The position numbers and the translations under genes were made by a program. 64,000 nucleotides of DNA from an uncultured bacterium (GTDB taxonomy: Bacteria > Omnitrophota > Omnitrophia > Omnitrophales > Aquincolibacteriaceae), in assembly GCA_964562525.1 (NCBI GenBank), contig CAZLTL010000005.1:876-64875 (forward strand). Direction: 5' to 3'. The notes below the pieces were generated by a model. That model saw nothing but the letters and a program-made list of their open reading frames with translations. It did not search any database and was not told the origin of the DNA. Positions 7,826 through 55,100 of this stretch are shown here, one piece after another; the stretch's first letter is position 1; the number at the start of each line of letters is the position of its first letter.

Positions 7826-8286
7826 TTTTGTTTGTAAGTATTGTTCATGTGATTGTTTGTCTCTTATTGCTTGCGATTATTTTGCTTCAACCCGGAAAAG
7901 GAATGGGGCTTTCAAGCGCGGCTTTCGGTGGATCCGATGCTCAGTCTGTATTCGGCACAAAAACAGCGGATGTTTTGACCAAGGCAACGACGGTTGCGGC
8001 TGTTTTATTTATTGTGACTTGCATTACCTTGAGCTCAATGGCTGCGAATAAATCCCGGTCCTTGTACTCCAAATTTCAGGATCAGGCTCCGATTACGATG
8101 GACCAGATTCAGAAAGCCGTAAAAGAAGCAGAAGAAAAAGCAGCTCAAGAGACCTCTGCCGCGCCAACTGCAGCAGTTTCATCTGCGGCGGCTGAAGTTC
8201 AAGCCGTTGTGGATCAGGCAGCACAGACGGGTGAAGCTGCGCCTGTCCCAGCCGTACCAGCGACGGAGTCGGCGCCTGCCGCTTAA
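7822..8286 (+). CDS. secG: Preprotein translocase subunit SecG, with an Ala/Gln-rich C-terminal extension
   Basis: N-terminal TM helix followed by LQPGKGMGLSSAAFGGS (SecG signature) and a second TM helix. Overlaps the tpiA stop, matching the conserved tpi-secG linkage. Confidence 0.8.
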   Translation: MILFVSIVHVIVCLLLLAIILLQPGKGMGLSSAAFGGSDAQSVFGTKTADVLTKATTVAAVLFIVTCITLSSMAANKSRSLYSKFQDQAPITMDQIQKAVKEAEEKAAQETSAAPTAAVSSAAAEVQAVVDQAAQTGEAAPVPAVPATESAPAA

Positions 8287-8292
8287 AAGCTC

Positions 8293-8319
8293 AATCAGGA
8301 CTGACTGTCCTGATTTTTT
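8293..8319 (+). terminator. Rho-independent terminator after secG
   Basis: AATCAGGAC-TGACT-GTCCTGATT perfect 9-bp stem followed by TTTTT. The T-tract abuts the recG ATG at 8320. Confidence 0.55.
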
Positions 8320-35949: not shown

Positions 35950-37117
35950 AGAGCGGCGCGCTTTTTTAAAGCGCCTGTCCAAAAATTTGGAGCAAATTGA
36001 CAAGAAAACGCTTCTGACCCATTTATTGGACGAAGCGGAAGGGTATGAAGCCTTTGTCGGTTTGCTGCAGCGTCTCGATGAAGGAATCTTGCTTGTTTCA
36101 GAACAGGGTGAGGTTGAGCTGATGAATGATTCGGCCCGTAAAATGCTGGGTCTCAAGATGACCCCAACCCAACCTTTTTGGGATGACATCGAAGACGCTG
36201 ATTTAAAATCTTTTTTTGAGAAACAACTTCAAGCGATTCGTTCCGAAGTTGTGCAAATTGTTCGGGCTTTAACGCCTCAAGAACGCAACTTTAAAATCCA
36301 CATTCATCCCACGGTTTTAACAAAGCCCGCGCGGCATTTAATCAGCGTAACGGACCTGACCCATTCCTTGTTGCCTGAGGTGGAGCGTATGGCGCGACGC
36401 CGGTTTGAAGCTTTAATTCGGCTTACGGGCGGTTTAGCGCATGAAATCGGTAATCCGCTCAACGCGATGTCGCTTCATACCGAAATTTTAAAAAAACAGA
36501 TTGAGAAAGTGAGTGATCCCAAAAAAGATTATTTGCTGGATACGGTTCAAATTATTAAAGATGAAATAGGCCGACTCGATCGGATTGTGCGAAATTTTTT
36601 AAAAACAACCCGCCGAACCCCGCTGCGGTTTCAAATGCTGAATTTAAGCACAATCATTCAGGATGTTTTGCGCGTGATGAAGCCTTCTTTGGAAGAGCAT
36701 GATGTGCGTTTGGAAATTTCAATTCCGGAGCGGGTTGATTTTTTTCTGGATGAGGAGCGCATGCGCTCGCTGTTTATGAACTTGATTCAGAACGCGATGG
36801 AAGCCATGTCGCAAGGCGGAAATTTGACCATCCAAGCTGTTGTTAAAGGGCAGACGGCGAAAATTGTTGTTGAAGATACCGGTAAGGGAATTGCTGAGCA
36901 GGATTTACCGCATATTTTTGAAGCCTATTTCACGACTAAAGAGCATGGTTCAGGTTTAGGACTAATGTTTGTTTATGACGCGGTTCACGATCATGGCGGA
37001 AAAGTGGATGTGCGCAGCCGCCCCGGCAAGGGCACACGTTTTGAAATTACATTGCCTTTGCGCCGATCCAATTTACAAATCCAGCACGCTTCCAATCAAG
37101 TGACAGGAGATGAGTGA
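35936..37117 (+). CDS. Sensor histidine kinase (cytoplasmic, PAS-like N-terminus; HisKA + HATPase_c)
   Basis: H-box LAHEIGNPLNAMSLHTEIL and N/G1/G2 boxes (NLIQNAMEAM, EDTGKGI, GSGLGL). No TM segments. The start overlaps the trpF 3' end by 14 nt. Confidence 0.8.
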   Translation: MSRLEERRAFLKRLSKNLEQIDKKTLLTHLLDEAEGYEAFVGLLQRLDEGILLVSEQGEVELMNDSARKMLGLKMTPTQPFWDDIEDADLKSFFEKQLQAIRSEVVQIVRALTPQERNFKIHIHPTVLTKPARHLISVTDLTHSLLPEVERMARRRFEALIRLTGGLAHEIGNPLNAMSLHTEILKKQIEKVSDPKKDYLLDTVQIIKDEIGRLDRIVRNFLKTTRRTPLRFQMLNLSTIIQDVLRVMKPSLEEHDVRLEISIPERVDFFLDEERMRSLFMNLIQNAMEAMSQGGNLTIQAVVKGQTAKIVVEDTGKGIAEQDLPHIFEAYFTTKEHGSGLGLMFVYDAVHDHGGKVDVRSRPGKGTRFEITLPLRRSNLQIQHASNQVTGDE

Positions 37118-38484
37118 TGGCTAACTTTCAATCCATTTTAATTGTGGATGACGACGAAAACTCGCTGAAAGGCTTGGCGCGTTACCTTGAAAATTTGGAA
37201 TATGATGTGCTTACAGCGAGCAATGCCGCGCAAGCGATTGAACTTTTTAGGCTTGAGAAGCCCGATTTAGTTTTATCCGACGTTAAAATGCCCGGGATGA
37301 GCGGCTCTGATCTGTTGGATAAACTGATTGAGATTCACCCCGCCGCCAAAGTGATTCTCATGACGGCTTACGGCAGCGTGGAAGACGCGGTGAAGGCGAT
37401 TAAGAAAGGTGCTTTTTATTATCTCCAAAAGCCAATTAATTTAGATGAGCTTGAGATTTTGATCAAGAAAGCCTTCTCCAGCAAGTTGCTTGAGGAAGAA
37501 AACCGTGAATTGAAGAGGGAATTGTTTGCCCAAAAGTTTGATGATGGCGAACTTGTCGCGGAATCTTCGAAGATGAAAGAGCTCTTAAAGATCGTTGATA
37601 AAATCGCACAATCTCAGTCGACGATTTTAATTGAAGGCGAAAGCGGTACCGGAAAAGAGTTGATTGCCCATCGTATTCATAGGCTTAGTCAGCGCGCGCA
37701 GGCAGCCTTTATTCCCGTGCATTGCGCGGCTTTAACGGACACTCTTTTAACGAGTGAGTTGTTTGGCCATGAAAAAGGCGCTTTTACCGGAGCTTTAGAA
37801 CGTAAACAGGGACGGTTTGAACGCGCGCATCAGGGAACTTTGTTTTTGGATGAAATGGGGGAAATTTCAAAAGATACGCAGGTGAAGCTTTTGCGCGTGT
37901 TGCAAGAAGGCGAGTTTGAGCGCGTGGGCGGCGCTAAAACGATTAAAGTGGATGTACGTGTGGTTGCCGCGACGAATCGTCATCTGCTTGAAGAGGTCAA
38001 GGCCGGGCGTTTTCGCGAAGATTTATACTACCGTATCAATGTGATTTACATAAAAGTTCCGCCTTTACGCGAACGCAAAGAAGATATTCCGCCGCTGGTG
38101 CATAATTTTATCCGGCAGTTTTCGAAGGCAAACGGAAAAAAGCTGACCGGAATTGATAAAAAAGCCATGGAACTTTTAGTTGCTTACGATTGGCCCGGAA
38201 ATATCCGTGAGCTTAAAAATATTATTGAGCGCATGATCGTGTTGAGTTCAGAGCCGATTTTGCAGGCGGATCTTGTTCCTGATGATATCCGCTCTTTTTA
38301 TCCCAAAGCGGCCGTCAGCGAAGCAGGCGCACATGCTTCTTTAAGTGAGGTTGAAAAAGATCTTATTTTGCGGACGTTGAAAGCGCATCATGGTAATAAA
38401 TCTTCCGCCGCGCAAGCTTTGGGCATTTCCCGCCGAACCCTTTATCGGAAGATAGAAGAATATCGAATTCCAGAAAATTCTTAG
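37114..38484 (+). CDS. Sigma-54-dependent response regulator (NtrC family: REC + AAA+ sigma-54 activator + Fis-type HTH)
   Basis: Receiver Asp pocket (IVDDDE...LSDVKMPGMSG), Walker A GESGTGKE, GAFTGA motif, Walker B FLDEMGE and a C-terminal HTH (AAQALGISRRTLYRKI). Confidence 0.85.
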   Translation: MMANFQSILIVDDDENSLKGLARYLENLEYDVLTASNAAQAIELFRLEKPDLVLSDVKMPGMSGSDLLDKLIEIHPAAKVILMTAYGSVEDAVKAIKKGAFYYLQKPINLDELEILIKKAFSSKLLEEENRELKRELFAQKFDDGELVAESSKMKELLKIVDKIAQSQSTILIEGESGTGKELIAHRIHRLSQRAQAAFIPVHCAALTDTLLTSELFGHEKGAFTGALERKQGRFERAHQGTLFLDEMGEISKDTQVKLLRVLQEGEFERVGGAKTIKVDVRVVAATNRHLLEEVKAGRFREDLYYRINVIYIKVPPLRERKEDIPPLVHNFIRQFSKANGKKLTGIDKKAMELLVAYDWPGNIRELKNIIERMIVLSSEPILQADLVPDDIRSFYPKAAVSEAGAHASLSEVEKDLILRTLKAHHGNKSSAAQALGISRRTLYRKIEEYRIPENS

Positions 38485-38674
38485 CCATTAAGCCACAGCA
38501 GTTGAGTCATAGTGGCACACTTGCTTTTTTTCTCACGCGAATCCTCTGAATTTATATTGTTGTAACTTTATTGATTTCAATAGGTTAAACAATGTTTCGC
38601 CGCCACTTGGTTATGGCACAGGAATTGATACTCCAAGTTATCGCAATAGTTCTCAAATTAAGGAGCATAAGATT

Positions 38675-40582
38675 ATGGCAAAAGTATTAGGTATCGATTT
38701 AGGAACAACCAATTCATGTATGGCAATTATCGAAGCGGGCGAAACAAAGGTCATTGCCAATAAAGAAGGCAATCGCACAACGCCTTCGATTGTTGCTTTC
38801 ACTAAAACAGGAGAAAGAATTGTCGGTCAAGCGGCGAAGCGCCAGGCCGTAACGAATCCTGAGAATACTGTTTTCAGTGCGAAGCGTTTCATTGGACGCC
38901 GTTTTGAAGAAACTGAAGCGGATCGCAAGATGGTTGCTTTTAAAGTCAATAAAGGCAAGCATGGCGAAGCTGTGATTCAAGTTCCTCAGGAAAATCGTGA
39001 ATTTACACCGCCTGAAATTTCAGCCATGGTACTTCAAAAGCTGAAAAGCGACGCAGAAGCCTTTTTGGGTGAAAAAATCACACAAGCTGTGATTACGGTT
39101 CCGGCTTATTTCAACGATTCACAGCGCCAGGCAACGAAAGACGCCGGTCAAATTGCCGGTCTTGAAGTTTTGCGCATTATCAACGAGCCGACAGCTGCGG
39201 CGCTGGCTTATGGTTTAGATAAGAAGAAAGATGAAAAGATTGCCGTGTATGATTTGGGAGGCGGAACGTTTGACGTTTCCATTCTTGAAATCGGCGATGG
39301 CGTTTTTGAAGTCAAGGCAACCAACGGCGATACTCATTTGGGCGGCGACGACTTTGACCAAATTGTTATCGCATGGCTCACAGAAGAGTTCAAAAAATCC
39401 GAAGGCATTGATTTGAGCAAAGATAAGATGGCGATTCAACGCCTCAAAGAAGCCGCAGAAAAAGCGAAGTGCGAACTTTCAACTTCACAATCAACGGAAA
39501 TCAATTTGCCGTTTATTACCGCGGATGCATCGGGTCCTAAGCATTTACTTTTGACTTTAACTCGCGCCAAGCTTGAGCAATTGTGTCAGAACTTGATTGA
39601 GCGTACCGCTCAGCCCTGCATTCAGGCTTTGAAGGATGCGGGTTTAAATGCTTCTGATATCAATGAAGTGATTCTTGTCGGCGGTATGACCCGTATGCCG
39701 GCCGTGGTTCAGAAAGTAAAATCGATTTTTGGCAAAGAGCCGCATCAAGGTGTCAATCCGGATGAAGTGGTTGCGGTTGGCGCAGCGATCCAGGGTGGGG
39801 TTCTTCAAGGTGATGTGAAAGACGTTCTTCTGCTTGACGTGACTCCGCTTTCGCTTGGAATTGAAACTCTCGGCGGAATTATGACGAAGCTGATTGAGCG
39901 CAATACCACTATCCCGACCAAGAAATCAGAAATTTTCTCCACAGCCGCTGATAATCAAACCGCAGTCACGGTGAAGGTTTTGCAGGGGGAGCGTGAGATG
40001 GCGAATGATAACCGGAGTTTGGGAGTTTTTAACCTTGAAGGTATTCCGCCGGCCGCGCGCGGAGTTCCACAGGTGGAAGTCACTTTCGACATTGATGCGA
40101 ATGGTATTGTGCATGTTTCCGCAAAAGACTTGGGGACAGGTAAAGAACAGAAAATTCGCATTGAATCTTCATCCGGTCTTTCTAAGGAAGAAATCGAAAA
40201 GCTGGTTAAAGAAGCTCAGGCGCATGCGTCGGAAGACAAACAGAAGCATGAGGTTATTACCGCCCGGAATCAGCTTGATAGTTTGATTTATGCGACTGAA
40301 AAGAGCTTGAAAGAGAATGAAGCGAAGGCAACGGCGGAAGAAAAACAAAAGATTGAAGACGCGATTAAAGAAGCTCGGGAAGCGTTGAAAACGGATGACA
40401 AATCCAAGCTTGACGCTGCGACCCAAGCCGTCTCAGCCGCCTCGCAGTCCTTTGCTCAGAAAATCTACGCGGAAGCATCGCAGAAAGCTCAGCCCCAGCA
40501 GCCCGGTGCGGAAGCTAAAAAAGACGATGCCGTGGATGCGGAATATGAGGTTGTTGACGATGAGGACAAAAAGAAAAAGTAA
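38675..40582 (+). CDS. dnaK: Chaperone protein DnaK (Hsp70)
   Basis: [16 protein letters not shown] and GG-rich NBD motifs, full length. AAGGAG RBS. Confidence 0.95.
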
Positions 40583-40768: not shown

Positions 40769-41767
40769 ATGGGTTTCTCGGATGTTTCCATTCAAGAGGT
40801 TAACGCTAAAGTTCGCGACGCCAGTTCCGTTTTACGCGATTTGAGCCGTGAAGTCGGGCGAGCGATTGTCGGTCAGGAGTATATGGTTTCGAGGTTGCTG
40901 ATGGCGATGCTTGCCGATGGACACGTCTTGATTGAAGGTGTTCCGGGCTTGGCCAAAACCATGACCGTGAAGACGCTTTCGGAAGCGATTAAAGCCAGCT
41001 TTGCGCGTATTCAGTTTACGCCGGATCTTTTACCGGCGGACATTATCGGAACGATGATTTTTAATCCCAAAGACGGAACCTTTTCCACTAAACGCGGACC
41101 CGTTTTTGCGAACGTTGTTTTAGCCGACGAAATTAACCGTTCTCCTTCAAAAGTGCAAAGCGCTTTGCTGGAAGCCATGCAGGAAAAGCAGGTTACCGTT
41201 GGCGGCGAGACATTCCCGCTTCCCAAGCCGTTTCTTGTTTTGGCAACGCAAAACCCGCTTGAGCAAGAGGGAACTTATCCGCTGCCTGAAGCTCAGGTTG
41301 ACCGTTTCATGATGAAGTTGATGGTTAATTATCCTTCCAAGAAAGAAGAGAAAGAAATTTTGGAACGCATGACTACGGGACGCAAAATTCAAATTTCGCC
41401 CGTAATTGATGTCGATAAGATTTTAGCTTTGCGTAAACTTTTGCATGAAATTTATATCGATGAAAAGGTTAAAGACTATATCGTTGATTTAGTTTTTGCG
41501 ACGCGCTTTCCTGAGGAATACAACCTCAAAGAATTGAAACCTTTAATTTCTTGCGGTGGTTCACCGCGTGCCAGCATCATGCTGACTTTGGTTTCAAAAG
41601 CCAACGCCTTCATGAATGGACGCGGTTACGTGACTCCGGATGACGTTAAGGAAATCGGAATGGATGTTTTGCGGCATCGCGTTTTGATTACCTATGAAGC
41701 CGAAGCTGAGAATTTAAAATCTGAAGACATTATCCGTAAAATTTTCGATCAAGTCGAAGTGCCGTAA
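40769..41767 (+). CDS. MoxR-family AAA+ ATPase
   Basis: Walker A EGVPGLAKT, Walker B LADEINR and sensor motifs. Typical ~330-aa MoxR. Confidence 0.85.
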   Translation: MGFSDVSIQEVNAKVRDASSVLRDLSREVGRAIVGQEYMVSRLLMAMLADGHVLIEGVPGLAKTMTVKTLSEAIKASFARIQFTPDLLPADIIGTMIFNPKDGTFSTKRGPVFANVVLADEINRSPSKVQSALLEAMQEKQVTVGGETFPLPKPFLVLATQNPLEQEGTYPLPEAQVDRFMMKLMVNYPSKKEEKEILERMTTGRKIQISPVIDVDKILALRKLLHEIYIDEKVKDYIVDLVFATRFPEEYNLKELKPLISCGGSPRASIMLTLVSKANAFMNGRGYVTPDDVKEIGMDVLRHRVLITYEAEAENLKSEDIIRKIFDQVEVP

Positions 41768-41823: not shown

Positions 41824-42699
41824 ATGAATACTGCTGAGATACTAAAGAAAGTTCGAAAGATTGAAATTCGCACCACCAAATTGGTCAATGACCTTTTTGG
41901 TGGAGAGTATCAGTCGGTATTTAAAGGTCAAGGGATTGAGTTCGCCGATGTCCGCGAATATGTTCCCGGAGATGATATTCGCAGCATTGATTGGAATGTT
42001 ACCGCGCGATCCGACCGCGCTTTTATCAAAAAATATATCGAAGAGCGCGAGTTGACGGTTATTTTTGCGGTAGATATGTCCGCATCTCAATACTTCGGCT
42101 CCCATTACAGACTTAAATCGGAAATCGCCGCGGAAGTCACAGCGCTTTTGTCTTTTTCGGCGGTTAAAAATCACGATAAAACCGGATTGGTTATTTTCAC
42201 CGATGAAGTTGAGAAATTTGTGCCGGTTAAAAAAGGCAAGACCCATGTTCTGCGCGTGGTACGCGAAATTCTTGGCTATAAAGCCAAGAAGTCCGGAACC
42301 CGTATTCAATCCGCTGCGGAATTCCTCAGCCGTATATTAACCCGTACTGCGGTTATTTTTATTATTTCCGATTTTATTGATCATGACTATGAACGCGGAT
42401 TAAAAATCCTTAGTCAGAGACATGACGTGATCGCGATTCAAATCAAAGATCCCATTGAGAGCCGTTTGCCTTCCGCGGGGATTGTCGAGCTATACGATAA
42501 TGAAAGCGGGCGGTCGATTTTGCTGGATAGCTCATCAAAAAAAGTTCGACATGCTTTTGAGCAGGCAGAAGCAAAGCGCTTAGATAAGCTTGACTCTCTT
42601 TTTAAAAAATTGGGGATTGATAAGATCTCCATATCCTCCGAAGAGTCTTACGTTGAGCCTTTAATTCGTTTTTTCAAAAAAAGAGAAGGTAAGAAATGA
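41824..42699 (+). CDS. DUF58-domain protein (vWA-like; MoxR partner)
   Basis: REYVPGDDIRSIDWNVTAR motif characteristic of DUF58, immediately downstream of moxR. Confidence 0.75.
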   Translation: MNTAEILKKVRKIEIRTTKLVNDLFGGEYQSVFKGQGIEFADVREYVPGDDIRSIDWNVTARSDRAFIKKYIEERELTVIFAVDMSASQYFGSHYRLKSEIAAEVTALLSFSAVKNHDKTGLVIFTDEVEKFVPVKKGKTHVLRVVREILGYKAKKSGTRIQSAAEFLSRILTRTAVIFIISDFIDHDYERGLKILSQRHDVIAIQIKDPIESRLPSAGIVELYDNESGRSILLDSSSKKVRHAFEQAEAKRLDKLDSLFKKLGIDKISISSEESYVEPLIRFFKKREGKK

Positions 42700-43676
42700 T
42701 TCGCTATTTTTCTTTTCTTTTCGTTTTTTTATGTGCGTTTTTTATGGTCGGGGAGCGATTAATCATAGCCGGACCATCCGCTGCTCAAGAAGAGTCTGCG
42801 CTTATTACGGCTTATGCGGAAGCCGAAAAGGCTGCGCTTACGATAGGTGAACCGGTTGTTGTTAAGGTCGTGGTGACGCTTGAAAGCAATCTTGAATTGA
42901 TTAATGGAATTCCTGATCCCGAAGCCCATGGGCTTAACCTTAAAGAGCATAAAACCTGGCAAGACCGTGATGGCAAGAAAATAGTTTTTGGGCGAAGCTG
43001 GACGATAACAGGCTTTCAATTGGGGCGTTTTATGGTTGAGCCCATTGAGGTGGCTTATCGGGAAAAGGGGGGAGAGGTTAAAACGGCAAAAACAAATCCT
43101 GTCTATATCACGATAGAGAGTATTGCTGCAGGGGAAAAGAAAACCGATATCCGGGATGTTAAAGGCGTGGTAACGCTTCAATCGAAAATCATGAAATATT
43201 TGCTTCCGGTCGGAATTCCTTTAAGTTTGCTATTGCTGCTGGCGCTTTATCTGATTTATTTTCGTAAGAAAGAACTTTTGCGCGCCCAAACCAGGGTCGT
43301 TTTATCGCCCGCAGAAGAAGCTTTGACTCATTTAAGAGCACTTTTTGATTCGACGCTGATACGCGACGGCAAGATTAAAAATTATTACTTTACCTTTTCT
43401 GAAATTTTGAAGATTTATCTCGAAAAACAATTTGGTATTCAGGCGATCGAGGGCACGACTTCTGAAATTGCAGCCATGCTCAAGCGGGTGCCGGCCACGG
43501 ATGAATCAAAAAAGAAATTGATTGAGGTTTTGGAAGCTGCTGATTTTGCAAAATTCGCAAAATGGGTTCCGCCTCCGGCGGATATCGTCGCGCTAAACAA
43601 GAAGGCTGAGTCTGTAGTTACCGAGCTTTTGATCAGACCGGACGCGGCGGAGGGGAATGGGCATGCAGTTTCGTGA
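42696..43676 (+). CDS. Hypothetical membrane protein of the Bat operon (N-terminal hydrophobic leader, one internal TM helix)
   Basis: Hydrophobic N-terminus (FSFLFVFLCAFFMV) and an internal TM helix (LLPVGIPLSLLLLLALYLIYF). Occupies the slot held by a membrane-anchored hypothetical protein in MoxR-DUF58-BatA operons. Confidence 0.4.
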   Translation: MIRYFSFLFVFLCAFFMVGERLIIAGPSAAQEESALITAYAEAEKAALTIGEPVVVKVVVTLESNLELINGIPDPEAHGLNLKEHKTWQDRDGKKIVFGRSWTITGFQLGRFMVEPIEVAYREKGGEVKTAKTNPVYITIESIAAGEKKTDIRDVKGVVTLQSKIMKYLLPVGIPLSLLLLLALYLIYFRKKELLRAQTRVVLSPAEEALTHLRALFDSTLIRDGKIKNYYFTFSEILKIYLEKQFGIQAIEGTTSEIAAMLKRVPATDESKKKLIEVLEAADFAKFAKWVPPPADIVALNKKAESVVTELLIRPDAAEGNGHAVS

Positions 43677-44646
43677 CCCTCTTTTCTTTTTATTGCTGCT
43701 TCTCTTGCCGATTTTATTTTATTTTTCCAGATCCAGACAAAAAGTGTGGATGCCGTTTTCCAGTATTTCTGAGCGGGGCTTGCATGGAACGGTGTCACTC
43801 AAAATTTTGCTTTACCGGCTTTTGCCTTTTTTGCGTTTGACCGTACTTGCTTTGGTGATATTTGCGCTTGCGCGGCCGGTTCAAGCTCTGTCAGAAAAAG
43901 ACTTCGAAACCCAGGGAATTGACATTGTGATGTCGCTAGATATTTCAGGCTCCATGCTGGCTGAGGATTTCAAGCCGCAGAACCGCTTGTTTGTTGCCAA
44001 GGAAGAAGCCAAAAACTTCATTAATGCCCGCCAGAATGACCGCATTGGATTGGTTATTTTTGCCAAAAAAGCCTACTCGCAATGCCCCTTAACGTTGGAT
44101 TACAAGATTTTGAATCAGCTGGTGGATGATGTGCAAATTGGGATGATCGAAGACGGCACTGCGATTGGAATGGGGCTGGCCACTGCGGTAAACCGGCTTA
44201 AAACAAGCACTGCCAAGAGCAAGGTCATCATTTTGCTGACCGATGGTGATAATAATGCCGGCAATATTGACCCTGTCACTGCCGCGGAGCTGGCGAAGAC
44301 ATTCGGAATTAAAGTGTATACGATTGGCGTTGGGAAAGGCGGGCTTGTTGATTTTCCTGTCGTGGATCCTTTGTTTGGGAAACGATATGTCCAGGTTGAA
44401 ATGGATGTGGACGAGTTTGTGCTGAAGCGAATCGCGGACATCACCGGAGGAAAGTTTTTCCGCGCTCGTGATGCGGCAGGACTTAAAGAAGTTTACTCAA
44501 AAATCGATCAGCTTGAACGTACAGAGATCAAAGTGCATCTCTATCAAAGCTATCAAGAGCTTTTTAAATATATTCTGATTCCCGCTGTCTTGCTTTTGTT
44601 CATTGAATTGGCTTTATCTAGAACTGTTTTACTTAAAATCCCATGA
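43657..44646 (+). CDS. batA: von Willebrand factor A-domain membrane protein, BatA-like
   Basis: N- and C-terminal TM helices flanking a vWA domain with the MIDAS motif (DIVMSLDISGSM...LTDGDNN). Confidence 0.7.
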   Translation: MGMQFRDPLFFLLLLLLPILFYFSRSRQKVWMPFSSISERGLHGTVSLKILLYRLLPFLRLTVLALVIFALARPVQALSEKDFETQGIDIVMSLDISGSMLAEDFKPQNRLFVAKEEAKNFINARQNDRIGLVIFAKKAYSQCPLTLDYKILNQLVDDVQIGMIEDGTAIGMGLATAVNRLKTSTAKSKVIILLTDGDNNAGNIDPVTAAELAKTFGIKVYTIGVGKGGLVDFPVVDPLFGKRYVQVEMDVDEFVLKRIADITGGKFFRARDAAGLKEVYSKIDQLERTEIKVHLYQSYQELFKYILIPAVLLLFIELALSRTVLLKIP

Positions 44647-44712: not shown

Positions 44713-47031
44713 GTGCAATTTTATTCACCTTATTTTCTTAATCTGCTTTGGCTGGTTCCAATCTTGATTGTGTGTTTTTTTGCGTCTGCGTTTTTAAATG
44801 CAAATCGACTCAAGTCATTTTTGAAGACGCGTGAAATTCAAGACAAGCTTTTGCCGCATTACAATCGGCTTGAATGGCCGATTCGTGGCGCTTTTTTACT
44901 GGCCGCCTTTTTGTTGATCGTGCTCGCTTTGTCGCAGCCGCAATGGGGCGAAGAAAAGAAAAAAGTCGAACGCAAAGGCGTTGACCTTATTTTTCTTTTG
45001 GATGTTTCGCTGAGTATGCTTGCGGAGGATGTGAAACCAAGCCGGGTTCTTAAAGCTAAATTTGAGATTGAGGCTTTTGTGAAAGCATTGAAGGGGCATC
45101 GGATTGGTATGCTCACATTTGCCGGATCAAGTTTCATGCAGACACCTTTAACTTTAGATTACTCGGCGTTTCTCATCTTTTTAAGCGGTGTCGATGTGGG
45201 GCACGTCCCTGATCCGGGTACGTCCTTGGGCGCGGCTATTGAAAAAGCCATTGCAGCCTTTACCGATGAAAAGGGTAAGCAAAAAGCTTTGGTTGTATTC
45301 TCTGACGGTGAGGATCATGCCGCCCAAATTGATTCTGCGGTTGCCCTCGCAAAGCAGCAAAACGTCCGTATTTATACAATAGGAACCGCGACGGGGGAGG
45401 GGGCTCCTATCCCTCTTAAAAACGAAAGAGGGGTTCAAACCGCGGTCAAAAAAGACCGGGTGGGGAATATCGTGATTACTAAGCTGGATAAAGCAGTTTT
45501 ATCCAAAATTGCCACCGAGACAGGCGGGCTTTATTTTCCGGCGACCCCGAGTGAAAAAGAAGTCGATTTGATTTTGAAACACTTATCCAGCCTGGGTGAA
45601 AAAAAGCTGGAAGACCGGGTTGTGACGGAAAAAGAAGATCATTATCAGATCTTTTTGTTTATCGCTTTGATATTGCTCATGCTTGAAATGGTTGTGAAGC
45701 GTGGACGCGCGATACGGCTGAATATTCTGCCTTTCTTTTTTTTAGTTTTTATTTTGAACTCCGGATTTTTGCCCACGGCTCAAAATAAAGTTGAAGAAGG
45801 TAATAAAGATTTTGAAGGTAAACGGTATCAATCCGCTATTGATAAATACCGCGAAGTTCAGGTGAAAAATCCGGATGACCCGTCAGTTTCGTATAACTTA
45901 GCCACGTCGTTGTACAAGGTTGATCAATATCAAGAGTCCGCCGCACATTTAAAGAAATCCATGGAAAAGTCACAGGCTGAAAACAATGCTCTTCGCGCCA
46001 AGATTGCCTATAACTACGGCAATTCGCTTTTTCGCTTGGGAGATTATGACGGTGCGGTTGAAGCTTACAAGAAGGCACTTGAACTTAATCCTCAAGATCA
46101 AGACTCAAAATACAACTTAGAGTATATTCAGGATCAAAAAAGCAAATTTGAAAAAGAAAATCAGGACCGCAAAAAAGATAATCAAGATAAGAAGAACGAT
46201 CAAAACAAGCAGCAAAACAATAAAAATCAACAGCAGAACCAACAGCAAAATCAGCAAAACCAAGGTGGCGGGGGCAGCTCGAAGGATAATCAGAATCAAC
46301 AAGGGCAAAATAATCAGCAAAATCAAAGCGGTTCGGGCCAGCAAGATCAAAAACAGAATCAGGGCGGACAGGGCGAGAACAAGCAAAACACCGGGCAAAA
46401 TCAAGGGCAAGATCAAAAAGATCAGGGGCAAGGCCAAAATCAGAAAGATCAGCAAAGTCAGGGCGATCAGTCCGATCAAAACAAAGAGCAAAATCAGAGC
46501 TCAGGCGGCCAAGGCGAAAAGAAAGACGATGAGCAGAATCAAGGTGGTCAAGGTCAAGATCAAAAAGACCAAGGCGGTGGGCAGCAGGGTCAAGATCAAA
46601 ATCAAGGCGGTCAAGGGCAACAGGATCAGAAAGAACAGCAAGGACAAGGTCAGCAAGACAAGCAGCAGGGCCAAGGTGGGCAAAGTCAGCAAGAAAAAGA
46701 ACAGAATCAACAGGGCGGAAAGGGCCAAGAAAAAAACGATCAAGGGCAAAAGCCTGAGTCTAAGCCAGGCGAGCAGCCGGGCGGCGGACAGAAGCCTCAG
46801 GATCAGCCCTCCGGCGGCGGGGCTTCCGGTGGACAAGCTGGGGGTGGCGCTGGTGAGGAGCAACAGCAACAGGCTGGTGGTGCCGGCGGCAAGCCTCTTC
46901 AGGGGCAAATGAGTAAAGAGAATGCGGAATATCTGCTTGCTTCGCTAGAGGAAGGCGAAAAGAAGTTTCAAGTGATGCGGAAGCCGGCTGAAAATCAGTC
47001 TGAAGACCCTTATGTGGAAAAAGATTGGTAA
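44713..47031 (+). CDS. batB: BatB-like vWA membrane protein fused to a BatC-like TPR domain, with a ~250-aa Gln/Asn/Gly/Asp/Lys-rich low-complexity region
   Basis: N-terminal TM helix, vWA MIDAS motif (DLIFLLDVSLSM...FSDGEDH), two TM helices, TPR repeats (NYGNSLFRLGDYDGAVEAYKKALELNPQD), then a QNQGGQGQDQKDQ-type repetitive tail up to ~residue 735. Confidence 0.7.
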   Translation: MQFYSPYFLNLLWLVPILIVCFFASAFLNANRLKSFLKTREIQDKLLPHYNRLEWPIRGAFLLAAFLLIVLALSQPQWGEEKKKVERKGVDLIFLLDVSLSMLAEDVKPSRVLKAKFEIEAFVKALKGHRIGMLTFAGSSFMQTPLTLDYSAFLIFLSGVDVGHVPDPGTSLGAAIEKAIAAFTDEKGKQKALVVFSDGEDHAAQIDSAVALAKQQNVRIYTIGTATGEGAPIPLKNERGVQTAVKKDRVGNIVITKLDKAVLSKIATETGGLYFPATPSEKEVDLILKHLSSLGEKKLEDRVVTEKEDHYQIFLFIALILLMLEMVVKRGRAIRLNILPFFFLVFILNSGFLPTAQNKVEEGNKDFEGKRYQSAIDKYREVQVKNPDDPSVSYNLATSLYKVDQYQESAAHLKKSMEKSQAENNALRAKIAYNYGNSLFRLGDYDGAVEAYKKALELNPQDQDSKYNLEYIQDQKSKFEKENQDRKKDNQDKKNDQNKQQNNKNQQQNQQQNQQNQGGGGSSKDNQNQQGQNNQQNQSGSGQQDQKQNQGGQGENKQNTGQNQGQDQKDQGQGQNQKDQQSQGDQSDQNKEQNQSSGGQGEKKDDEQNQGGQGQDQKDQGGGQQGQDQNQGGQGQQDQKEQQGQGQQDKQQGQGGQSQQEKEQNQQGGKGQEKNDQGQKPESKPGEQPGGGQKPQDQPSGGGASGGQAGGGAGEEQQQQAGGAGGKPLQGQMSKENAEYLLASLEEGEKKFQVMRKPAENQSEDPYVEKDW
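46140..46905 (+). repeat. Coding low-complexity CAA/CAG/GGC/GAT/AAA-rich repeat tract (Gln/Asn/Gly-rich tail of batB)
   Basis: Highly repetitive DNA visible in the sequence. It generates spurious long ORFs in other frames on both strands. Confidence 0.7.
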
Positions 47032-47731: not shown

Positions 47732-49090
47732 ATGTCACCACAAACATCTCATCCAGAGCCGAGGAATCATGTTGTTGTGGGCATTGTTATTTGTATTCTA
47801 ATATTTTCAGCTGGGCTATTGCCCATCGACTCGGTTCGACCTCTGCAGTTATTGGGTTGGCCCGTCTGGATTTTTTTGGTAACGCGTTTAAGCCTGAAAT
47901 CGGGTTTAACAGCATCCCTTTTGATTAATCTCACGCTTAGTTTATTCGGCTCGTTTTGGATTGAATATTTCGGCTCTGGGTTTCTTATCAAGGCTGTGTT
48001 GTTATCGTTTTGGGTTTTACCGACATTAACTTTGATTTTTCACGGTATTCGAAAAATAACAATGCTTGGAAACGCTTTCGCTTTGGTTTTAGCTTCTGTT
48101 TTTCCCGTGGCATTCATTTCGCAATCACCCCTTTACCAGGGATTTTTTAATTTTCCGCTTGTTGCTGAGCAAATTCTTTTCTTGTTTCATGGTTCGTTAG
48201 GCCTTTTTATTTTAGGAGTCGCTTGGATTGGTTTATGTGCCGGAGCCTTGGAATTGCTCAAGACTAAATCTAAAACAGCTCTGATTATTACTGCCGTTAA
48301 CAGTTTAGTTTTGATACTCGCTTTTGGTTTTGGCGCATTTCGGACAATGGAAGAAACGTCAAATACTTCAATTGATCCAAACACAGTAAAAAAAGTGGCA
48401 TTAGTTCAACACAACGTCCCGTTCTTTTCTGATTCACGCGACTTGCAAGCTGTTTTGGAATCTTATGCTATTAAATCAATAGAGAGCGTAAAACGCGATC
48501 TGATTGTTTTTCCTCTGTATGACTTACCTGAAAACTTGCAGCGCGACCTTATTGATCCGGATAGCGGATTCTTTCGTGATCTTGCCTTGAAAACAAATTC
48601 GGGTATTTTAGTTGCTACTAAGCTGTCAGGATTGGTTGCTTTTGGTAAATTTTCGAATAATTTTGTCATTGCCGCAGCGCTTCGTTCCGGCGCAGGTTCG
48701 CTGGATGGTGTGCATCGCTCTTCTGCGCGTTCGCCGTTTCATGATCCCAGACAAGTTTTAGAGAAATATGATGTGATTAAGTCGAACGAATTTGGAACTT
48801 TTGGTGCTTTGATTTCGTATGAATTAGAAACACCGGATCGCGCCCAAACTGCGAAAAGGCTCGGCGCTAAGTTTCTGGTGGGTTTATCAAACCCCGGCGA
48901 CGCACCCTATTCCCCTTTACCTGCTTATCAGCTTAAAGAAATCCAGAGGCGTGCCATTGAAACCAATCTGCCAATTTTATCGGTAACCCCGAACGGATAT
49001 TCGGCGCACATCGATTCGCGGGGACGGGTTGTTAAGAAATCGCAGCTGGGACAATCCGAAATCTTATTAGCAGACTTGGTCGTAATTTAA
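47732..49090 (+). CDS. lnt: Apolipoprotein N-acyltransferase-like protein (Lnt architecture: polytopic N-terminal membrane domain + C-terminal CN-hydrolase-like domain), with apparent substitutions at catalytic positions
   Basis: ~6 TM helices, then the Lnt-hallmark VALVQHNV (compare VALVQGNI). At positions aligned by eye to the E. coli Lnt triad: IVFPL (Glu to Leu) and ALISYE (Cys to Ser). Confidence 0.55.
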   Translation: MSPQTSHPEPRNHVVVGIVICILIFSAGLLPIDSVRPLQLLGWPVWIFLVTRLSLKSGLTASLLINLTLSLFGSFWIEYFGSGFLIKAVLLSFWVLPTLTLIFHGIRKITMLGNAFALVLASVFPVAFISQSPLYQGFFNFPLVAEQILFLFHGSLGLFILGVAWIGLCAGALELLKTKSKTALIITAVNSLVLILAFGFGAFRTMEETSNTSIDPNTVKKVALVQHNVPFFSDSRDLQAVLESYAIKSIESVKRDLIVFPLYDLPENLQRDLIDPDSGFFRDLALKTNSGILVATKLSGLVAFGKFSNNFVIAAALRSGAGSLDGVHRSSARSPFHDPRQVLEKYDVIKSNEFGTFGALISYELETPDRAQTAKRLGAKFLVGLSNPGDAPYSPLPAYQLKEIQRRAIETNLPILSVTPNGYSAHIDSRGRVVKKSQLGQSEILLADLVVI

Positions 49091-49154: not shown

Positions 49155-52100
49155 TTACGCTGAGGCTTCAACCTTCTTGCGGGATGCAAGCTCAATGAGC
49201 AGTGATTTGAGAGCTTCGTTGTTCCAGTATTTGTTCATGTCGCGAATGCCGTTGCTCAATCGGGTATCCACACCAGGCGCGAATTGCAGATCAAATTGTT
49301 TTGCTCCGAACTCAATCGCTAACTTACCTGTCGAAATCGCTTTTGCTATGAGCTCCTGATCCAGTGTATTTTCACCGTCATAAGCAAACGTCATCAATTC
49401 ATGATCTGCAGGATTATTTGCAGCCAAGGTCTGATTCAACTCTGCCAACTTAGCGAGCATACGGTCATTGGTTGCCAGCTCTCTTGGCATCAAGATTGTG
49501 CTGCTGCTGATACCGATTCGAAGAATCTTCTTCGCGAGCACCTGAGCGTCGATTGCTTCGATGTTCGCAGCTGAAATGACGTCCACGTCGTTGATCTTCA
49601 AATTTCCGGTAGGATCAAGCAACATCACATTGGTTGTGCTGCGACCAATTTTAGATTTAAACGGACTTTGAACTCCGGCAACACCCTTCATGATTTGCTC
49701 AACAGCAAGTCGTGCTTTAGCATCAAGCGAAGCGTTTTTCAACGCTTCAAGGTATTCATTCATCAGCAGTACTTCTGCGGTGAATGAAGCGGCCATCGCA
49801 GATCGCTGCATACCCTTGACTGTTTCAAGATAAGCTTCAATTTCGCGAAGCATATCGATGTTAGAACCATAAAGCCCTGCGAAAGGAAGCAATTCGGAGT
49901 TAGCAGCAATAAGTTCGTCTGCTGTTTTCCCTTCCTGCGCGGCGTGAACCGCTTCGTGACTAACAATCGCAATTGCCATCCGCTCAACCATAACCGCGTA
50001 AGCTTGATCATCGAGCCCAACAAACTTATCAGGATTGAGAACAATCTTGCCTGCTATATCTTCGTTGGGCTCTTTTATGTCTGCATAAAGACCGAGCGCA
50101 TTGTTAGCAAAATAATCTCTCACCTGCTCTGGCGTTGCAAGCTCAATCGGCGGCAATGTCATATTTTTTAAGGAATCTGATTCTGGCGCTAACTGAGAAA
50201 TCTTTTTATCTGCAAGATTTACTATATCCGATAGAACTGAGTCTCTTAATTCAGATCGATTAGCGCTCACGGGTTGTTTTTCTGAATCCACAGCATCTAA
50301 CCCCATATTTACAGGCATTGTTGTTTCTGTAACAAACGCAGAACCCTTATCAGTACCCCAATTTTGAATTAAATCATGCACTCCAAATACCCAGCTGCGC
50401 ATATACATTGCCGCAGCCTTTTGGATATTGTCGGATTTTGTTACCTTAAACAGTTCAGCAGCTTCGCTTTCGGTTAAAATCTTTTCTCCGCGCTGCTTGA
50501 TCTCAGGCTGATTATTTTCCGCGAGTTTTGCATTCACTATAGACTCAGCTAGTTCTTTGTCACCGCGGCTAGCGGCATCAAGCCACTGAAAAAACCAGCG
50601 TGACATGTCAATCTGACCAAAATAATCAGATTGTTCTCCAAAAATAGCGCGATAAAGCTTGAATGCTTCTTGATAGTCGCCTTTTTCAAGCATGGCATCA
50701 GCTTGAGTGAAATTACTTCTATACTTCAAAATTGGGCTGTCACCTGCACTCACAATCTTACGGTAACTTGCCATTTTCTTAAGATAGAGCTCGTCCATCA
50801 TCGCGCCCGCTGCGGTAAGGCCTTCGTAAGCTTGATTTGCTTCACCTTCAGGCAGTGCGCGCAAATAAACTGTGGCAAAGTACTCAGCAAGAAAATCGCG
50901 TGCGATTTGCCCCTGGCTATCGGAACCTTGTTTGTGAATCCAAAGCATCATTTGAGCTTTCATACGCGTTTCATCCGCTGTCTTGGGATCAGCAACGATT
51001 GAAGTTAATTTTTTCTGAAGCGCGGATTCATCTTTAAGTAAAGTCTGAACTCCAAGCTGCTCTGCCAAATACTTCTCAGAAGCCCATTGGTCGAGCAAAT
51101 ATTCCATGGTTTCATGCAGCATAAAGGCACGAATCACACCATCGATTTGAGACTCTGAAGCCCCCATGGAGCGCATCAAATTCAGCTTCTTCAAGAGTTC
51201 TGCGCTGAAAAACATAATTTTTCCAGAAACATGAGCTGCTGCATCAGGATCAGAATCAACCGCTTTTTGAATATCGCGCAATACAAGCGCTGCATTAGTG
51301 ATAAAGGTCTTTGCCATAGGCTGTTCTTCGGCAGAAAAATTATTCCACTGCATTGACTCGAGTGATGCGGTTACTCTTTCTGCGGTTTTTTCGATCCAGG
51401 TTAGATCGACACCTAATCCATAAACGCGACGGAATTCTGAAAGAACATTCGTATGCACCATTTCTTCGGATTGATTAGCTAGGTCAAGCAGAGCTACCGT
51501 TCCTTCCAGATTTTGACGGAGGTCTTGTTCTAAAGCATTCTGTGAGCGCGCACTTAAAACTGCATTTGCAAAGTCATTACGGAAGGTTCCTTCTGCAAAC
51601 ATTGTAGTAATCAATCCGCCAGCATCTAATCCATGAACCTCAGCTAACATCTGAATACTTTCAGGCGTTAACCATTCGTATCGAGCAGCAATGGCCGCAA
51701 AAGCATCTTGAGTAATATTTGCGCGCAGCTCCATGTCTGCAGCAAATACCTGCTTAAGTTCTGCGATCGAAATATTAGTATTAAGCAAGGCTGATAAAGC
51801 TGAGTAATGCTGCGTGTTGATTTCGGAGTCCACCATTCGAAGAGCGTCTTCAACGGTTAAGCCCGCCTGTTTGGCATTCGCCAATACCCATGCCAGACTT
51901 TGTGAAGAACCTAGACCCTGCGTCTCAAAGCTAGCTATGGCTTTGAGATAAACATATTGCTTAAACATCGAGGTTTCAACACCTCCCAAAGCTTGTGCCA
52001 CAAGTGAATCAAAGATTGCACCGTCATTTATTTTTTCACCGGCCTGGCTAAGTAAAATTAACATCAATTGGGCTGATTTTCCGATGACTTCGGCATACGA

Positions 52101-55100
52101 CGCAGGAGCAAGCTGTTGGATGCGCTTAAGTGTTTGTGCAAAAGCTAGTGCCTCAGTAGAGCGTTCCCCATCACCCTGCTTAGTCATTTGCTTGATTAAG
52201 ATCTCATACTGTGAAGATGCAGCTCGATTACGCAAAACTTCCGAAGCTGCGCGCAATGGAGCTCCCCAGGTTTTCTGAGTTGCCCAGCGCGAAAGAAAGT
52301 TTTCGGTGCGGCCTAGAGTCTTACTGAGCGACTCAGCAGCAAGCGAGGTCATCTCATCATCACTTACGCTAAAGACCGCTTTTGTTAAACGCGCGTCAAA
52401 TTCTTGAACCAATTGAATGTAGGTCTCAATTGATCTGATGCTTATCTCGCGCGGCAGCGCTTTTACAAGATTTGCATGATGACGGATAATGAGAGATGCC
52501 GCTTTCGCGTCTATCAATAAATTCAGCTTACTTAATTCAGCGGCAGCATCCTCACCACTCATGTTTAAAATATTCGGAACTATTGCAGCAAGAGAATGAT
52601 CGCTTTTAAGACCTATCAGCGGAAGAAGCGTATTATTCCACCATCCCCGAATATTGTCTGTCATTCCGGGCATCCAGCGGCTTTGCGTAAGGGCGAGCAC
52701 TGCACCGAACATTCCAGCAGCAATCAAGAAAGCCGGTGTCCAAACAGCTCCGACCACAAGTCCAACAGAAGAAATGACTAATGCACGCTTGAGGTCGTTT
52801 GAATCATTGCCTTGCGTACCATACGCAAATGCTTTTAAGCGGTAAGCCCAGACAGCCGGGGTCAAATTCGTCTTCAAAAATCCTCGTTCGGTGCTGAGCG
52901 CTTGATACATTTTATCCTCTGAAATTTTAAGGCTTTCTGAGCGACGGATCATCCCTGATTCGAGATTTGAACGACGTGTACCTTGGGTAAACACGTTCTG
53001 ATAAACAGCAGCCTGCGCGCCCGTATTTGCAAAACCCATCGTGCGAATAGCACGCCAAGCCGCAAATTCAAAATTACGACTAACCAAAGTGCTCGCCAAC
53101 ATTTCACCAAGCAACGCATTCTGAGAATTACCCAACTCTACTTGATAATCAGCTAATGCATGACCGATGAATTCAAGCCGTTTAGCAAGATCCATCGAAT
53201 TTCGGCTTTCAAAAATATTCAGAGTGTTGAGATATTGAACCGCAGAGACCATGGCGTCATTTTGGCTTGATCCGCGATCAAAAGTGTCTCCGTTTAACGA
53301 TGCAATAAGCGCGACGGCCTCAATCACAGCACCTGCCGAAGACGGTGTGGTCACATTTGCGCCAAAAACTCCGCGAAGAAACTGAATCGAACGGTAGGCT
53401 CGGCCATTGACGGTACCCACTCCGATGTCACCTGTTTGCTTCCAATAATCAATTACCCGGTCAGCAAGTTCTGCCGAAACACCGCTTTCGTACTTGAGCT
53501 CGTTAATCGCGCGTTCAGGATTGTTCACGCGTTGCGCAACGTGCTTTTCGTATTTTTGTGCTTGTTCATTGCCCGCTATTCGGCTTTCGCGTGACTTAAG
53601 AATATAATCACTAAAGAGCATGACGGTTTTTACGAAGTCACGCGGGCTACCCTCTTGCTGGCGTGCAATGGAATAGCGGCCATCAGCATTGTCGGCTTCA
53701 ATCCGGGCAATATCAAATTCTGATGAAACCCGCTCACCCGTCATAGCACGTTCAATCGACATTAAATCGTGGAAATTGAAAACATGCTGTATCAATTCAC
53801 GAGATAGCCCTGTTTGAAGCAGTTTCTCCATCAAGGAGCCTCGCTCAACGCGGCTGGTTTCTGTCTTATTTCCAAAAACTTGCTGAATAGTCATTTCAAC
53901 CTGTCGGCGCACAAATTCACGGCCATCAACACCATCGCGTGAAAGCTCAGTCCACTCATTGCCGATTTTACCTTCTTCAAGCTCCGAGATGACTTCGCGG
54001 ATTTTTTTGAGCATTGGTTCATCTGCATTAAATGTAACAAGTAACTTTCGCATACCCTTCATGACCATAAAATCTTGCAGATACGTGCGTACAACTGCTT
54101 TTGCGCCCTCGGATTGATGCAAAGCTTCATTGAACTCCGCATTCAGGGTCAATACGGTTTCACGGCCAAATTCGCGTACGAGCTCTGCATTGAGGATTTC
54201 AGAAAAACGGGCGGGATCAATGCGCCCAGGCTCTTTCAGGCTGGCGGCTAATTCGAGAATTTTGCCGTACATCTGAAGTCGTGATTCGTAAAGAGCAATG
54301 CGGTTTTGCGACAAATTAACTTGCTCGTTAGAAGCATTCTTCATAACTTCAGATTCGATTGCCCGCACGGCTTCGAGTTCATTTGCAGAACGGGTTTGCA
54401 TGCGGTGCAAGAAACTGACAAAAGAGTCGTATGAGACTTCTCCGATAGCGGTTTTCAAGTTTCCTGCTAATGCTTCGGCATCTGCAAAAAGTCTGATTTG
54501 ACCCTGATTGGAGCGGTCGCGACCGATGACTTGCGCTAAGAAATGTGAGGCATAGTTCTGAACATCAAATGCAAAAACATGGGTCGCGGAAAGTGAGCGT
54601 GCTTCGTCAGGTAATACCTTCTTGAGGATATCAATCAGAGCTGTCTCACCTTCTTGTCCTTTGTATTCAGGGTTTTTCTGATTTTCTTTCATTTGCTCAA
54701 CCGCAGAATTGATTTCCCGATTTTCGCTCACGCTCATTTCACGAGGACGGGCTGCATTCAACCCGGTTCCGCCCACTTCGGTTGCAACGAGGATGCGGAA
54801 CCCTGAAACCATCTCACGTGCAAAACCAGGGATATTAGCTTCATTGGTATTTTGATCGACATTCAATATTTCATATTTGGCATCAAGTAATCCCTCTGCT
54901 TTCATTTTTGCAACTGACTCATCAATCCATTTGCGCATTTCAGGGTTACGCAGCACCATCACAAAGTTATCGTTGAAGACAACATTCGAGTTGCCTTTTT
55001 TCTCCGAAGCCTTAGCAACCGCATCGCGCATACTGGCTTCAAAAGAATCTTGGAACGCTACTTTTGAGACATTACCGTCCAATAATACTGTGCTAAGACG

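Follow-up and report, generated by a model that had tools for sequence, protein, structure and literature searches.

A window of 64,000 nt from an uncultured Omnitrophota bacterium (assembly GCA_964562525.1, contig CAZLTL010000005.1, positions 876 to 64,875) carries, at 44713..47031 (+), a single open reading frame (ORF) of 772 aa with a GTG start, in which a von Willebrand factor A (vWA) domain, a tetratricopeptide repeat (TPR) domain and a long low-complexity tail are joined. On sequence evidence, this gene is an orthodox BatB-BatC fusion of the widespread MoxR/vWA/TPR Bat envelope operon, in an Omnitrophota member; its linker and C-terminal motif are an ancestral, family-wide feature of BatC in the lineages sampled, and its peculiarity is one of degree, a long, glycine-rich linker that is a trait of its sub-lineage. 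Taken together, we read the protein as a normal Bat fusion with a lengthened normal BatC linker, which would act as a flexible tether for a C-terminal element docking in trans, and give this reading a probability of roughly 0.7.

The ORF was taken from a six-frame ORF list and its N-terminus fits the family consensus, M1 and F3 being nearly invariant in the homologue alignment. The vWA domain (aa 91-290; 44983..45582, +) was recognised by Pfam (VWA_2, 6e-16; VWA, 1e-13) and has an intact metal ion-dependent adhesion site (MIDAS; D97-x-S99-x-S101, T170, D198), of which D97, S99 and S101 are invariant in 55 homologues. The family profile matches PDB entries 3ibs ('BatB' of Bacteroides thetaiotaomicron, 1.1e-58) and 4jdu ('aerotolerance-related membrane protein' of Bacteroides fragilis, 1.3e-56), and the AlphaFold2 model of the domain superposes on both (Foldseek TM-score 0.93, root-mean-square deviation 1.7 Å). 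The TPR domain, which represents the BatC part (aa 356-472; 45778..46128, +), is supported by Pfam TPR_2 (2.5e-15) and other TPR families, by NCBIfam TPR_BatC_Lepto (7e-26) and by an AlphaFold2 predicted local distance difference test score (pLDDT) of 84-96. A hydropathy scan located four transmembrane (TM) segments, at aa 7-29, 55-77, 311-329 and 335-355. A preliminary description of this DNA had counted two; these are the pair between the vWA and TPR domains (45643..45777, +), while the N-terminal pair, with its K/R-rich intervening loop (44731..44943, +; AlphaFold2 helices 6-36 and 54-74), had been missed.

A Bacteroidota locus with the same gene order (L002, in the metagenome-assembled genome GCA_021156365.1) encodes BatB (343 aa) and BatC (232 aa) separately, and both align to the fused protein. 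Residues 14-328 match the separate BatB (34% identity, 2e-52), while residues 338-471 (the TPR domain) and 733-772 (40% identity) match the adjacent BatC. With similarity to BatB running up to aa 328 and similarity to BatC starting from aa 338, the junction consists of TM3 (the C-terminal anchor of BatB), a short KRGRAIR loop and TM4 (the former signal anchor of BatC). Everything expected of a BatB is present, from the N-terminal TM pair through the vWA domain and its DxSxS...T...D MIDAS to the C-terminal TM anchor. The same goes for BatC, in which a signal anchor is followed by a TPR domain of ~115 aa, a polar linker of low complexity and a conserved C-terminal helix that ends in [KR][DNE]W. 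The pairwise matches and the vWA fold bear out the earlier proposal that a BatB-like vWA domain and a BatC-like TPR domain share one ORF.

The corresponding NCBIfam models were matched below their cutoffs. VWA_BatB_Lepto (NF047506) scored 158.5 bits against a cutoff of 350; it is a Leptospira-specific 'exception' model, so this miss excludes the narrow Leptospira orthologue group only. TPR_BatC_Lepto (NF047507) scored 91 bits against a cutoff of 175, and Bacteroidota BatCs fall under this cutoff too (60-71 bits), indicating that the model is lineage-specific. Shortening the tail in silico extended the alignment to NF047507 into the C-terminal motif (positions 24-197 of 214), with a score of 99.9 bits, still under the cutoff.

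The fusion gene closes a series of five genes read in the same direction, and the neighbourhood of MoxR, DUF58, BatA, BatB and then the TPR protein BatC is that of a Bat operon. The first gene encodes a MoxR-type AAA+ ATPase (40769..41767, +; Pfam AAA_3 6.9e-66, AAA_lid_2 and bpMoxR), the second a vWA-like DUF58 protein (41824..42699, +; Pfam DUF58 2.1e-75), and the fourth BatA (43657..44646, +), with an N-terminal double-TM BatA domain (Pfam 1.5e-7) and a vWA domain (Pfam 1.7e-21; NCBIfam VWA_BatA_Lepto 5e-70, under its cutoff). The same order, with MoxR in the same position, is found in L002 and in L001 (Logan SRR22388275), a related contig that was assembled independently and has ~88% nucleotide identity to the window and identical synteny.

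The third gene (42696..43676, +) specifies a membrane protein of 326 aa with an N-terminal signal or TM segment, a second TM segment at about aa 166-188 and a C-terminal domain, and it gave no Pfam or NCBIfam matches. Within its C-terminal half, residues 190-292 share 31% identity (2e-14) with the ORF at the same position of the Bacteroidota locus (L002, 4976-5968), and tblastn also picked up the protein in 30 of 34 genome loci, upstream of BatC in each. It appears to be a conserved, unannotated component of the Bat operon, shared from Omnitrophota to Bacteroidota. BatD and BatE are not downstream of the fusion gene in the window, where the next genes encode YqeY and an Lnt-like CN_hydrolase; the same is true of L001, and L002 also lacks them. 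Only three bat genes are present in Leptospira biflexa (PMC3557215), so BatD and BatE are not universal.

The tail of the fused protein is matched throughout the family. The homologues considered were the best 120 (620-805 aa), all of whose named organisms are Candidatus Omnitrophota or Omnitrophica. In 117 of them, the ones measured for tail length, BatB and BatC are fused and are accompanied by a Q-rich tract of 132-293 aa, with a median of 165, and by the C-terminal motif. The tails of 31 stand-alone BatCs are 43-170 aa long, and the shortest linker among the 148 homologues measured is 43 aa. A profile of the last 48 residues (with invariant Q, G, Q, M, A, L, R, D and W), searched against 1.84 billion representative proteins, gave 85 matches. 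The full-length ones, of 228-365 aa, start with a signal peptide, continue through a TPR domain and a Q/E/K/D linker, and finish with the motif itself, and the named ones come from MAGs (metagenome-assembled genomes) of Bacteroidota and Competibacteraceae (one of the latter).

A scan of GTDB species genomes with an alignment of stand-alone BatCs returned at least 350 confirmed relatives, of which 80 loci were fetched. These belong to Bacteroidales, Paludibacteraceae, Flavobacteriales, Sphingobacteriales (including the cultured Mucilaginibacter ximonensis KCTC 22437), Ignavibacteriales and others. A stricter pattern gave 34 loci with linkers of 39-107 aa (median 55), and in 30 of these MoxR, DUF58, the unannotated protein, BatA and BatB all lie upstream. 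Named lineages with the BatC module, either fused or stand-alone, are thus Omnitrophota, Bacteroidota, Ignavibacteriota and Competibacteraceae. Across the family, linker length runs from 39 to 293 aa and composition differs by lineage (Q/K/D, Q/E or Q/G), with hydrophobic residues making up 3-6% in the linkers of every lineage sampled.

The tail had been called atypical for a Bat complex, a view that no longer stands, as linker and motif are the norm in every lineage sampled and BatB-BatC fusions have already been published (PMC3557215) for L. biflexa, Borrelia burgdorferi, Spirochaeta thermophila and Francisella tularensis. At 262 aa, the linker of the window ranks 110 of 117 fused homologues by length, and its glycine content (21%) is the highest among them. 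The closest relatives (57-97% identity) have tails of 240-286 aa with 14-21% glycine. The tract belongs to the expected architecture of a common operon, and there is no reason to mark it as anomalous, as an artefact or as a candidate prion.

Beyond the tract, the protein finishes with a conserved end of 40-45 aa, PLQGQMSKENAEYLLASLEEGEKKFQVMRKP...EKDW. The preliminary description had noticed a short conserved C-terminal end, and this is confirmed by invariant columns across aa 728-772 (Q730, G731, Q732, M733, A738, L742, R756, D771 and W772). The module it forms (46909..47028, +) consists of a helix (aa 735-756, AlphaFold2 pLDDT 75-79) and the terminal ...EKDW-COOH, and is also recovered by the profile matches. 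In 117 of the 120 best homologues the C-terminus is nearly invariant and follows the pattern PLQGQM..A...L..EK..R.P..KDW. When the last 51 aa were compared with Pfam and NCBIfam at E values up to 10, no families were found. A terminal [KR][DNE]W directly before the stop codon occurs in 79 of the 80 fetched loci (KDW 55, KNW 11, KEW 10, RDW 2, RNW 1); the final Trp is invariant in these 79 and the penultimate residue is D, N or E. Among the Bacteroidota and Ignavibacteriota loci (L004-L083), the KNW variant accompanies the 'ISKEDAERLLNAL' form of the helix, a possible case of clade-wise co-variation. The idea that Asp771 might serve as a MIDAS ligand was weakened by the Asn found at that position in 12 of 79 BatCs of Bacteroidota and Ignavibacteriota. 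A literature search, chiefly of titles and abstracts in a library without most subscription journals, turned up nothing on the BatC tail or module.

The low-complexity linker itself covers aa 473-732 (46129..46908, +), slightly more than the 46140-46905 given previously, and its first ~30 residues are predicted to prolong the last TPR helix. It consists of Q (34%), G (21%), K (10%), N (10%) and D (8%), with 1.5% hydrophobic residues, so that Q and N together make up 44%. In 40-aa windows its Shannon entropy is 1.9-2.8 bits, compared with 3.4-3.9 bits in the remaining protein. The tract has 28 K+R and 35 D+E residues (24% charged), which are evenly spread, and just two aromatic residues, both within the first 9 positions. 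The linker is a near-neutral polyampholyte, highly soluble, and its composition favours an expanded, soluble coil. Among ORFs of the window of at least 150 aa, it forms the longest low-entropy stretch (274 aa); the four others measure 46-90 aa, and two of these are the same tract read in alternative frames.

At the DNA level the tract contains 41% A, 29% G, 21% C and 9% T, and the scarcity of T leaves few possible stop codons, explaining the open alternative frames on both strands. ORFs of 124-254 aa overlie the tail (46148-46912, +; 46117-46491, -; 46501-46908, -); these are artefacts, not genes. The preliminary description spoke of repeat DNA, a term that does not fit, as the tract is repetitive in composition only. 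It contains no tandem array, Tandem Repeats Finder giving four imperfect arrays of 24-42 bp with 2-3 copies and scores of 59 or less; head-to-tail units able to slip, as in a contingency locus, are not found, and the indels relative to L001 are scattered and of 3-15 nt.

These indels (+6, +3, +15, +3, -6, +3, -3, -3 and -3 nt) leave the L001 tract net in-frame. The density of substitutions between the two sequences is 12.95 per 100 nt in the tract and 12.29 in the remaining gene, and the C-terminal motif is in frame in assemblies from NCBI, Logan, JGI and ENA. Neither the L001 comparison, the independent assemblies nor the repeat scan revealed collapse, a frameshift or rapid slippage. An expectation of length variation was partly correct: small in-frame indels separate species-level relatives and the fused family spans 132-293 aa, but hypervariable slippage was not seen. 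The tract evolves by small in-frame indels and is selected for composition and reading frame, not for sequence.

AlphaFold2 models were obtained for the fused protein, using a 55-sequence alignment, and for a stand-alone short-tail BatC (P0182), using 13 sequences only. In the former, the vWA and TPR domains have pLDDT values of 80-96 and the last TPR helix reaches about aa 505. Residues 497-727 are modelled as coil with block-mean pLDDT of 29-44, consistent with the disorder previously proposed for the tract, and beyond the helix at aa 735-756 (75-79) the last residues fall below 50-56, with the final ~10 under 50. The P0182 model shows a TPR domain at 91-98, a C-terminal helix at 52-61 and a terminus below 50. 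No confident docking of the terminus in cis is seen in either model, with coordinates not inspected and the P0182 alignment shallow; the low pLDDT of the terminus in both would fit docking in trans rather than in cis, but says little more.

The TM1-TM2 and TM3-TM4 (KRGRAIR) loops are rich in K and R, and stand-alone BatCs have signal peptides at their N-termini. In Borrelia, experiments placed the vWA domain of BB0173 in the periplasm (PMC5700661). Together these observations point to a periplasmic location for the vWA and TPR domains as well as for the linker and the C-terminal motif, and the periplasmic tail envisaged in the preliminary description is therefore plausible.

In the arrangement we propose, TM3 of BatB and TM4 of BatC would be joined by the short cytoplasmic loop, so that the vWA and TPR domains both stay on the periplasmic side of the inner membrane. 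The Q/G-rich linker would then be a flexible periplasmic tether, allowing the C-terminal helix and its free-terminus K-[D/N/E]-W peptide to seek out a partner and dock in trans. Such a partner might be the vWA or TPR domain of another Bat subunit, the periplasmic domain of the third operon gene, or a component of the cell wall or outer membrane. A tether with a docking peptide seems the likeliest role because the terminal helix and the residue-exact C-terminus are the only sequence-constrained part past the TPR domain. By standard scaling for disordered proteins, 262 residues have an estimated radius of gyration of ~4.6 nm and should measure ~11 nm from end to end, against a contour length of ~90 nm, and the last two estimates suggest coil enough to cross the periplasm.

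Several points weigh against this arrangement. The topology is predicted, and the AlphaFold2 evidence on docking is indirect. The docking partners are candidates only, and the hydrophobic moment of the C-terminal helix is modest (muH 0.3-0.38). Linkers of 39-293 aa within the family suggest that length may be weakly constrained. Deletion of bat genes in L. biflexa gave no phenotype in morphology, growth or oxidative stress (PMC3557215), and the published phenotypes conflict, since a stress phenotype is described for B. fragilis, Francisella and Riemerella and none for L. biflexa.

A bolder extension, which we hold only tentatively and regard as doubtful, is that linker, helix and K-[D/N/E]-W-COOH form an undescribed tethered-ligand module of BatC across the sampled phyla, docking in a periplasmic partner with its length tuned to envelope geometry, and that the long, Gly-rich form reflects adaptation in a single Omnitrophota sub-lineage. 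Were this so, the module would offer a concrete handle on the function of the Bat complex. The invariant free C-terminus of BatC is in any case a cheap and obvious target for probing Bat function, which has been puzzling since 1999.

The tether competes with the view that the linker is a neutral, drifting spacer, of which only a minimum separation, or none, is needed, so that the 262-aa length and the glycine content reflect non-adaptive indel drift in A/G-rich codons. Such drift would account for a linker that is not conserved in sequence, ranges from 39 to 293 aa, acquires frequent small indels between relatives and shifts in composition by lineage. It accounts less well for the retention of length and glycine in the window's sub-lineage down to 57% identity (240-286 aa), for the hydrophilic composition and frame-linked C-terminal motif in every sampled lineage, or for the finding that none of the 148 measured homologues has a linker below 43 aa, and we consider a purely neutral spacer unlikely. 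The tail had also been described as prion-like, and a Q/N-rich domain that forms amyloid or phase-separates could in principle drive self-assembly of the Bat complex. The Q+N (44%) and glycine (21%) contents and the disorder predicted by AlphaFold2 recall such domains, but the evenly spread charges (24%) and near absence of aromatic residues do not; from what is known of yeast prion domains, a composition so charged and poor in aromatics disfavours amyloid. The tract is, moreover, predicted to be exported to the periplasm, and the tails of other lineages are dominated by K, E and D, so that Q/N richness is not a conserved property. The prion-like label was not borne out, and self-assembly by this route is very improbable.

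Low-complexity DNA with several alternative frames open over it might equally raise the suspicion that the assembly is at fault, that a pseudogene has left a remnant, or that a contingency repeat is changing length rapidly between strains. The open frames follow from the 9% T content, however, and without a tandem array there is nothing to collapse or expand. The same architecture with an in-frame motif recurs in independent assemblies (NCBI, Logan, JGI and ENA), in 117 of the 120 homologues, and L001 is net in-frame. An artefact or a frameshift splitting the gene, the outcome named beforehand as fatal to the preliminary description, finds no support, and like a pseudogene remnant or a contingency repeat it is scarcely credible. 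Lastly, a motif at the extreme C-terminus with an invariant terminal residue and a low-complexity spacer before it could act as a signal for protein sorting or processing, in the manner of PEP-CTERM, LPXTG or the C-terminal domain of the type IX secretion system (T9SS). The hydrophobic TM segment and basic tail of PEP-CTERM and LPXTG signals are missing, as is the ~80-aa beta domain of T9SS substrates. The motif is instead a charged helix common to Bacteroidota, Omnitrophota and Competibacteraceae, and the conserved operon has no sortase-like gene, making a sorting signal highly unlikely. The preferred reading remains that of a tether with a docking C-terminus.

Other features of the window lie on both sides of the operon. 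Directly upstream and on the same strand (37114-40582, +) are genes for a sigma-54-dependent response regulator (456 aa, assigned from sequence alone) and DnaK. Downstream, the Lnt-like gene (47732-49090, +) encodes a multi-TM CN_hydrolase of 452 aa resembling apolipoprotein N-acyltransferase (75 bits against a TIGR00546 cutoff of 132.9), and it is kept in this position in L001. It is followed by a giant ORF of at least 4947 aa (49155-64000, -) that runs off the end of the window and whose L001 orthologue was called at 10,374 aa. Giant genes have been described for Omnitrophota (PMC10066038 and bioRxiv 10.1101/2023.11.21.568195), and the giant ORF therefore fits this phylum. At 7900-8300 (+), a small membrane protein, SecG-like in its N-terminal part by inspection, has an Ala/Pro/Glu-rich low-complexity C-terminal tail of ~60 aa, the only low-entropy stretch among the window's ORFs beyond the Bat gene and the giant ORF.

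Among known systems, the locus is most directly comparable to the Bat operon (BatI) of B. fragilis and B. thetaiotaomicron, with which it shares the order MoxR-DUF58-x-BatA-BatB-BatC, the MIDAS-bearing vWA domain, the TPR domain, the membrane anchors, and a linker followed by ...K[DNE]W. With the four published fusions named above, it shares BatB and BatC in one ORF (PMC3557215). It differs in its linker, which at 262 aa has about five times the median length of 55 aa in Bacteroidota BatC and is unusually Gly-rich. Further differences are that neither the window nor L001 has an adjacent BatD or BatE, that the host phylum is Omnitrophota, and that scores lie under the Leptospira NCBIfam cutoffs.

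Outside the Bat family, subunit D of Mg-chelatase (BchD/ChlD) likewise brings together a MoxR-like AAA+ domain and a vWA domain, with a long low-complexity linker of acidic or polar character, but there the linker joins other domains and is cytoplasmic. Stand-alone BatC tails give a weak match to the BchD linker (NF009943, E ~1e-3); the matches to linkers of Mg-chelatase D and cobaltochelatase were judged to be compositional only. Free C-termini are bound by TPR domains in the cases of the Hsp70/Hsp90 EEVD-COOH with Hop or CHIP and the peroxisomal targeting signal PTS1, SKL-COOH, with PEX5. By analogy, BatC may resemble these systems in presenting an invariant short C-terminal peptide on a disordered linker, with a TPR domain in the same system. 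It departs from them in that AlphaFold2 finds no confident docking of the terminus in the fused or the stand-alone BatC, and in a penultimate residue that varies (D, N or E). Flexible linkers that span the periplasm are found in inner-membrane-anchored proteins such as TonB (Pro-rich), TolA (domain II), LpoB and FtsN (Gln-rich). The window tract has no sequence relationship to these, being composed of Q, G, K and D rather than Pro-rich or Ala/Lys-rich, but the layout may be alike: an inner-membrane anchor, a long low-complexity or disordered segment, and a small C-terminal interaction element that would have to reach a distant partner.

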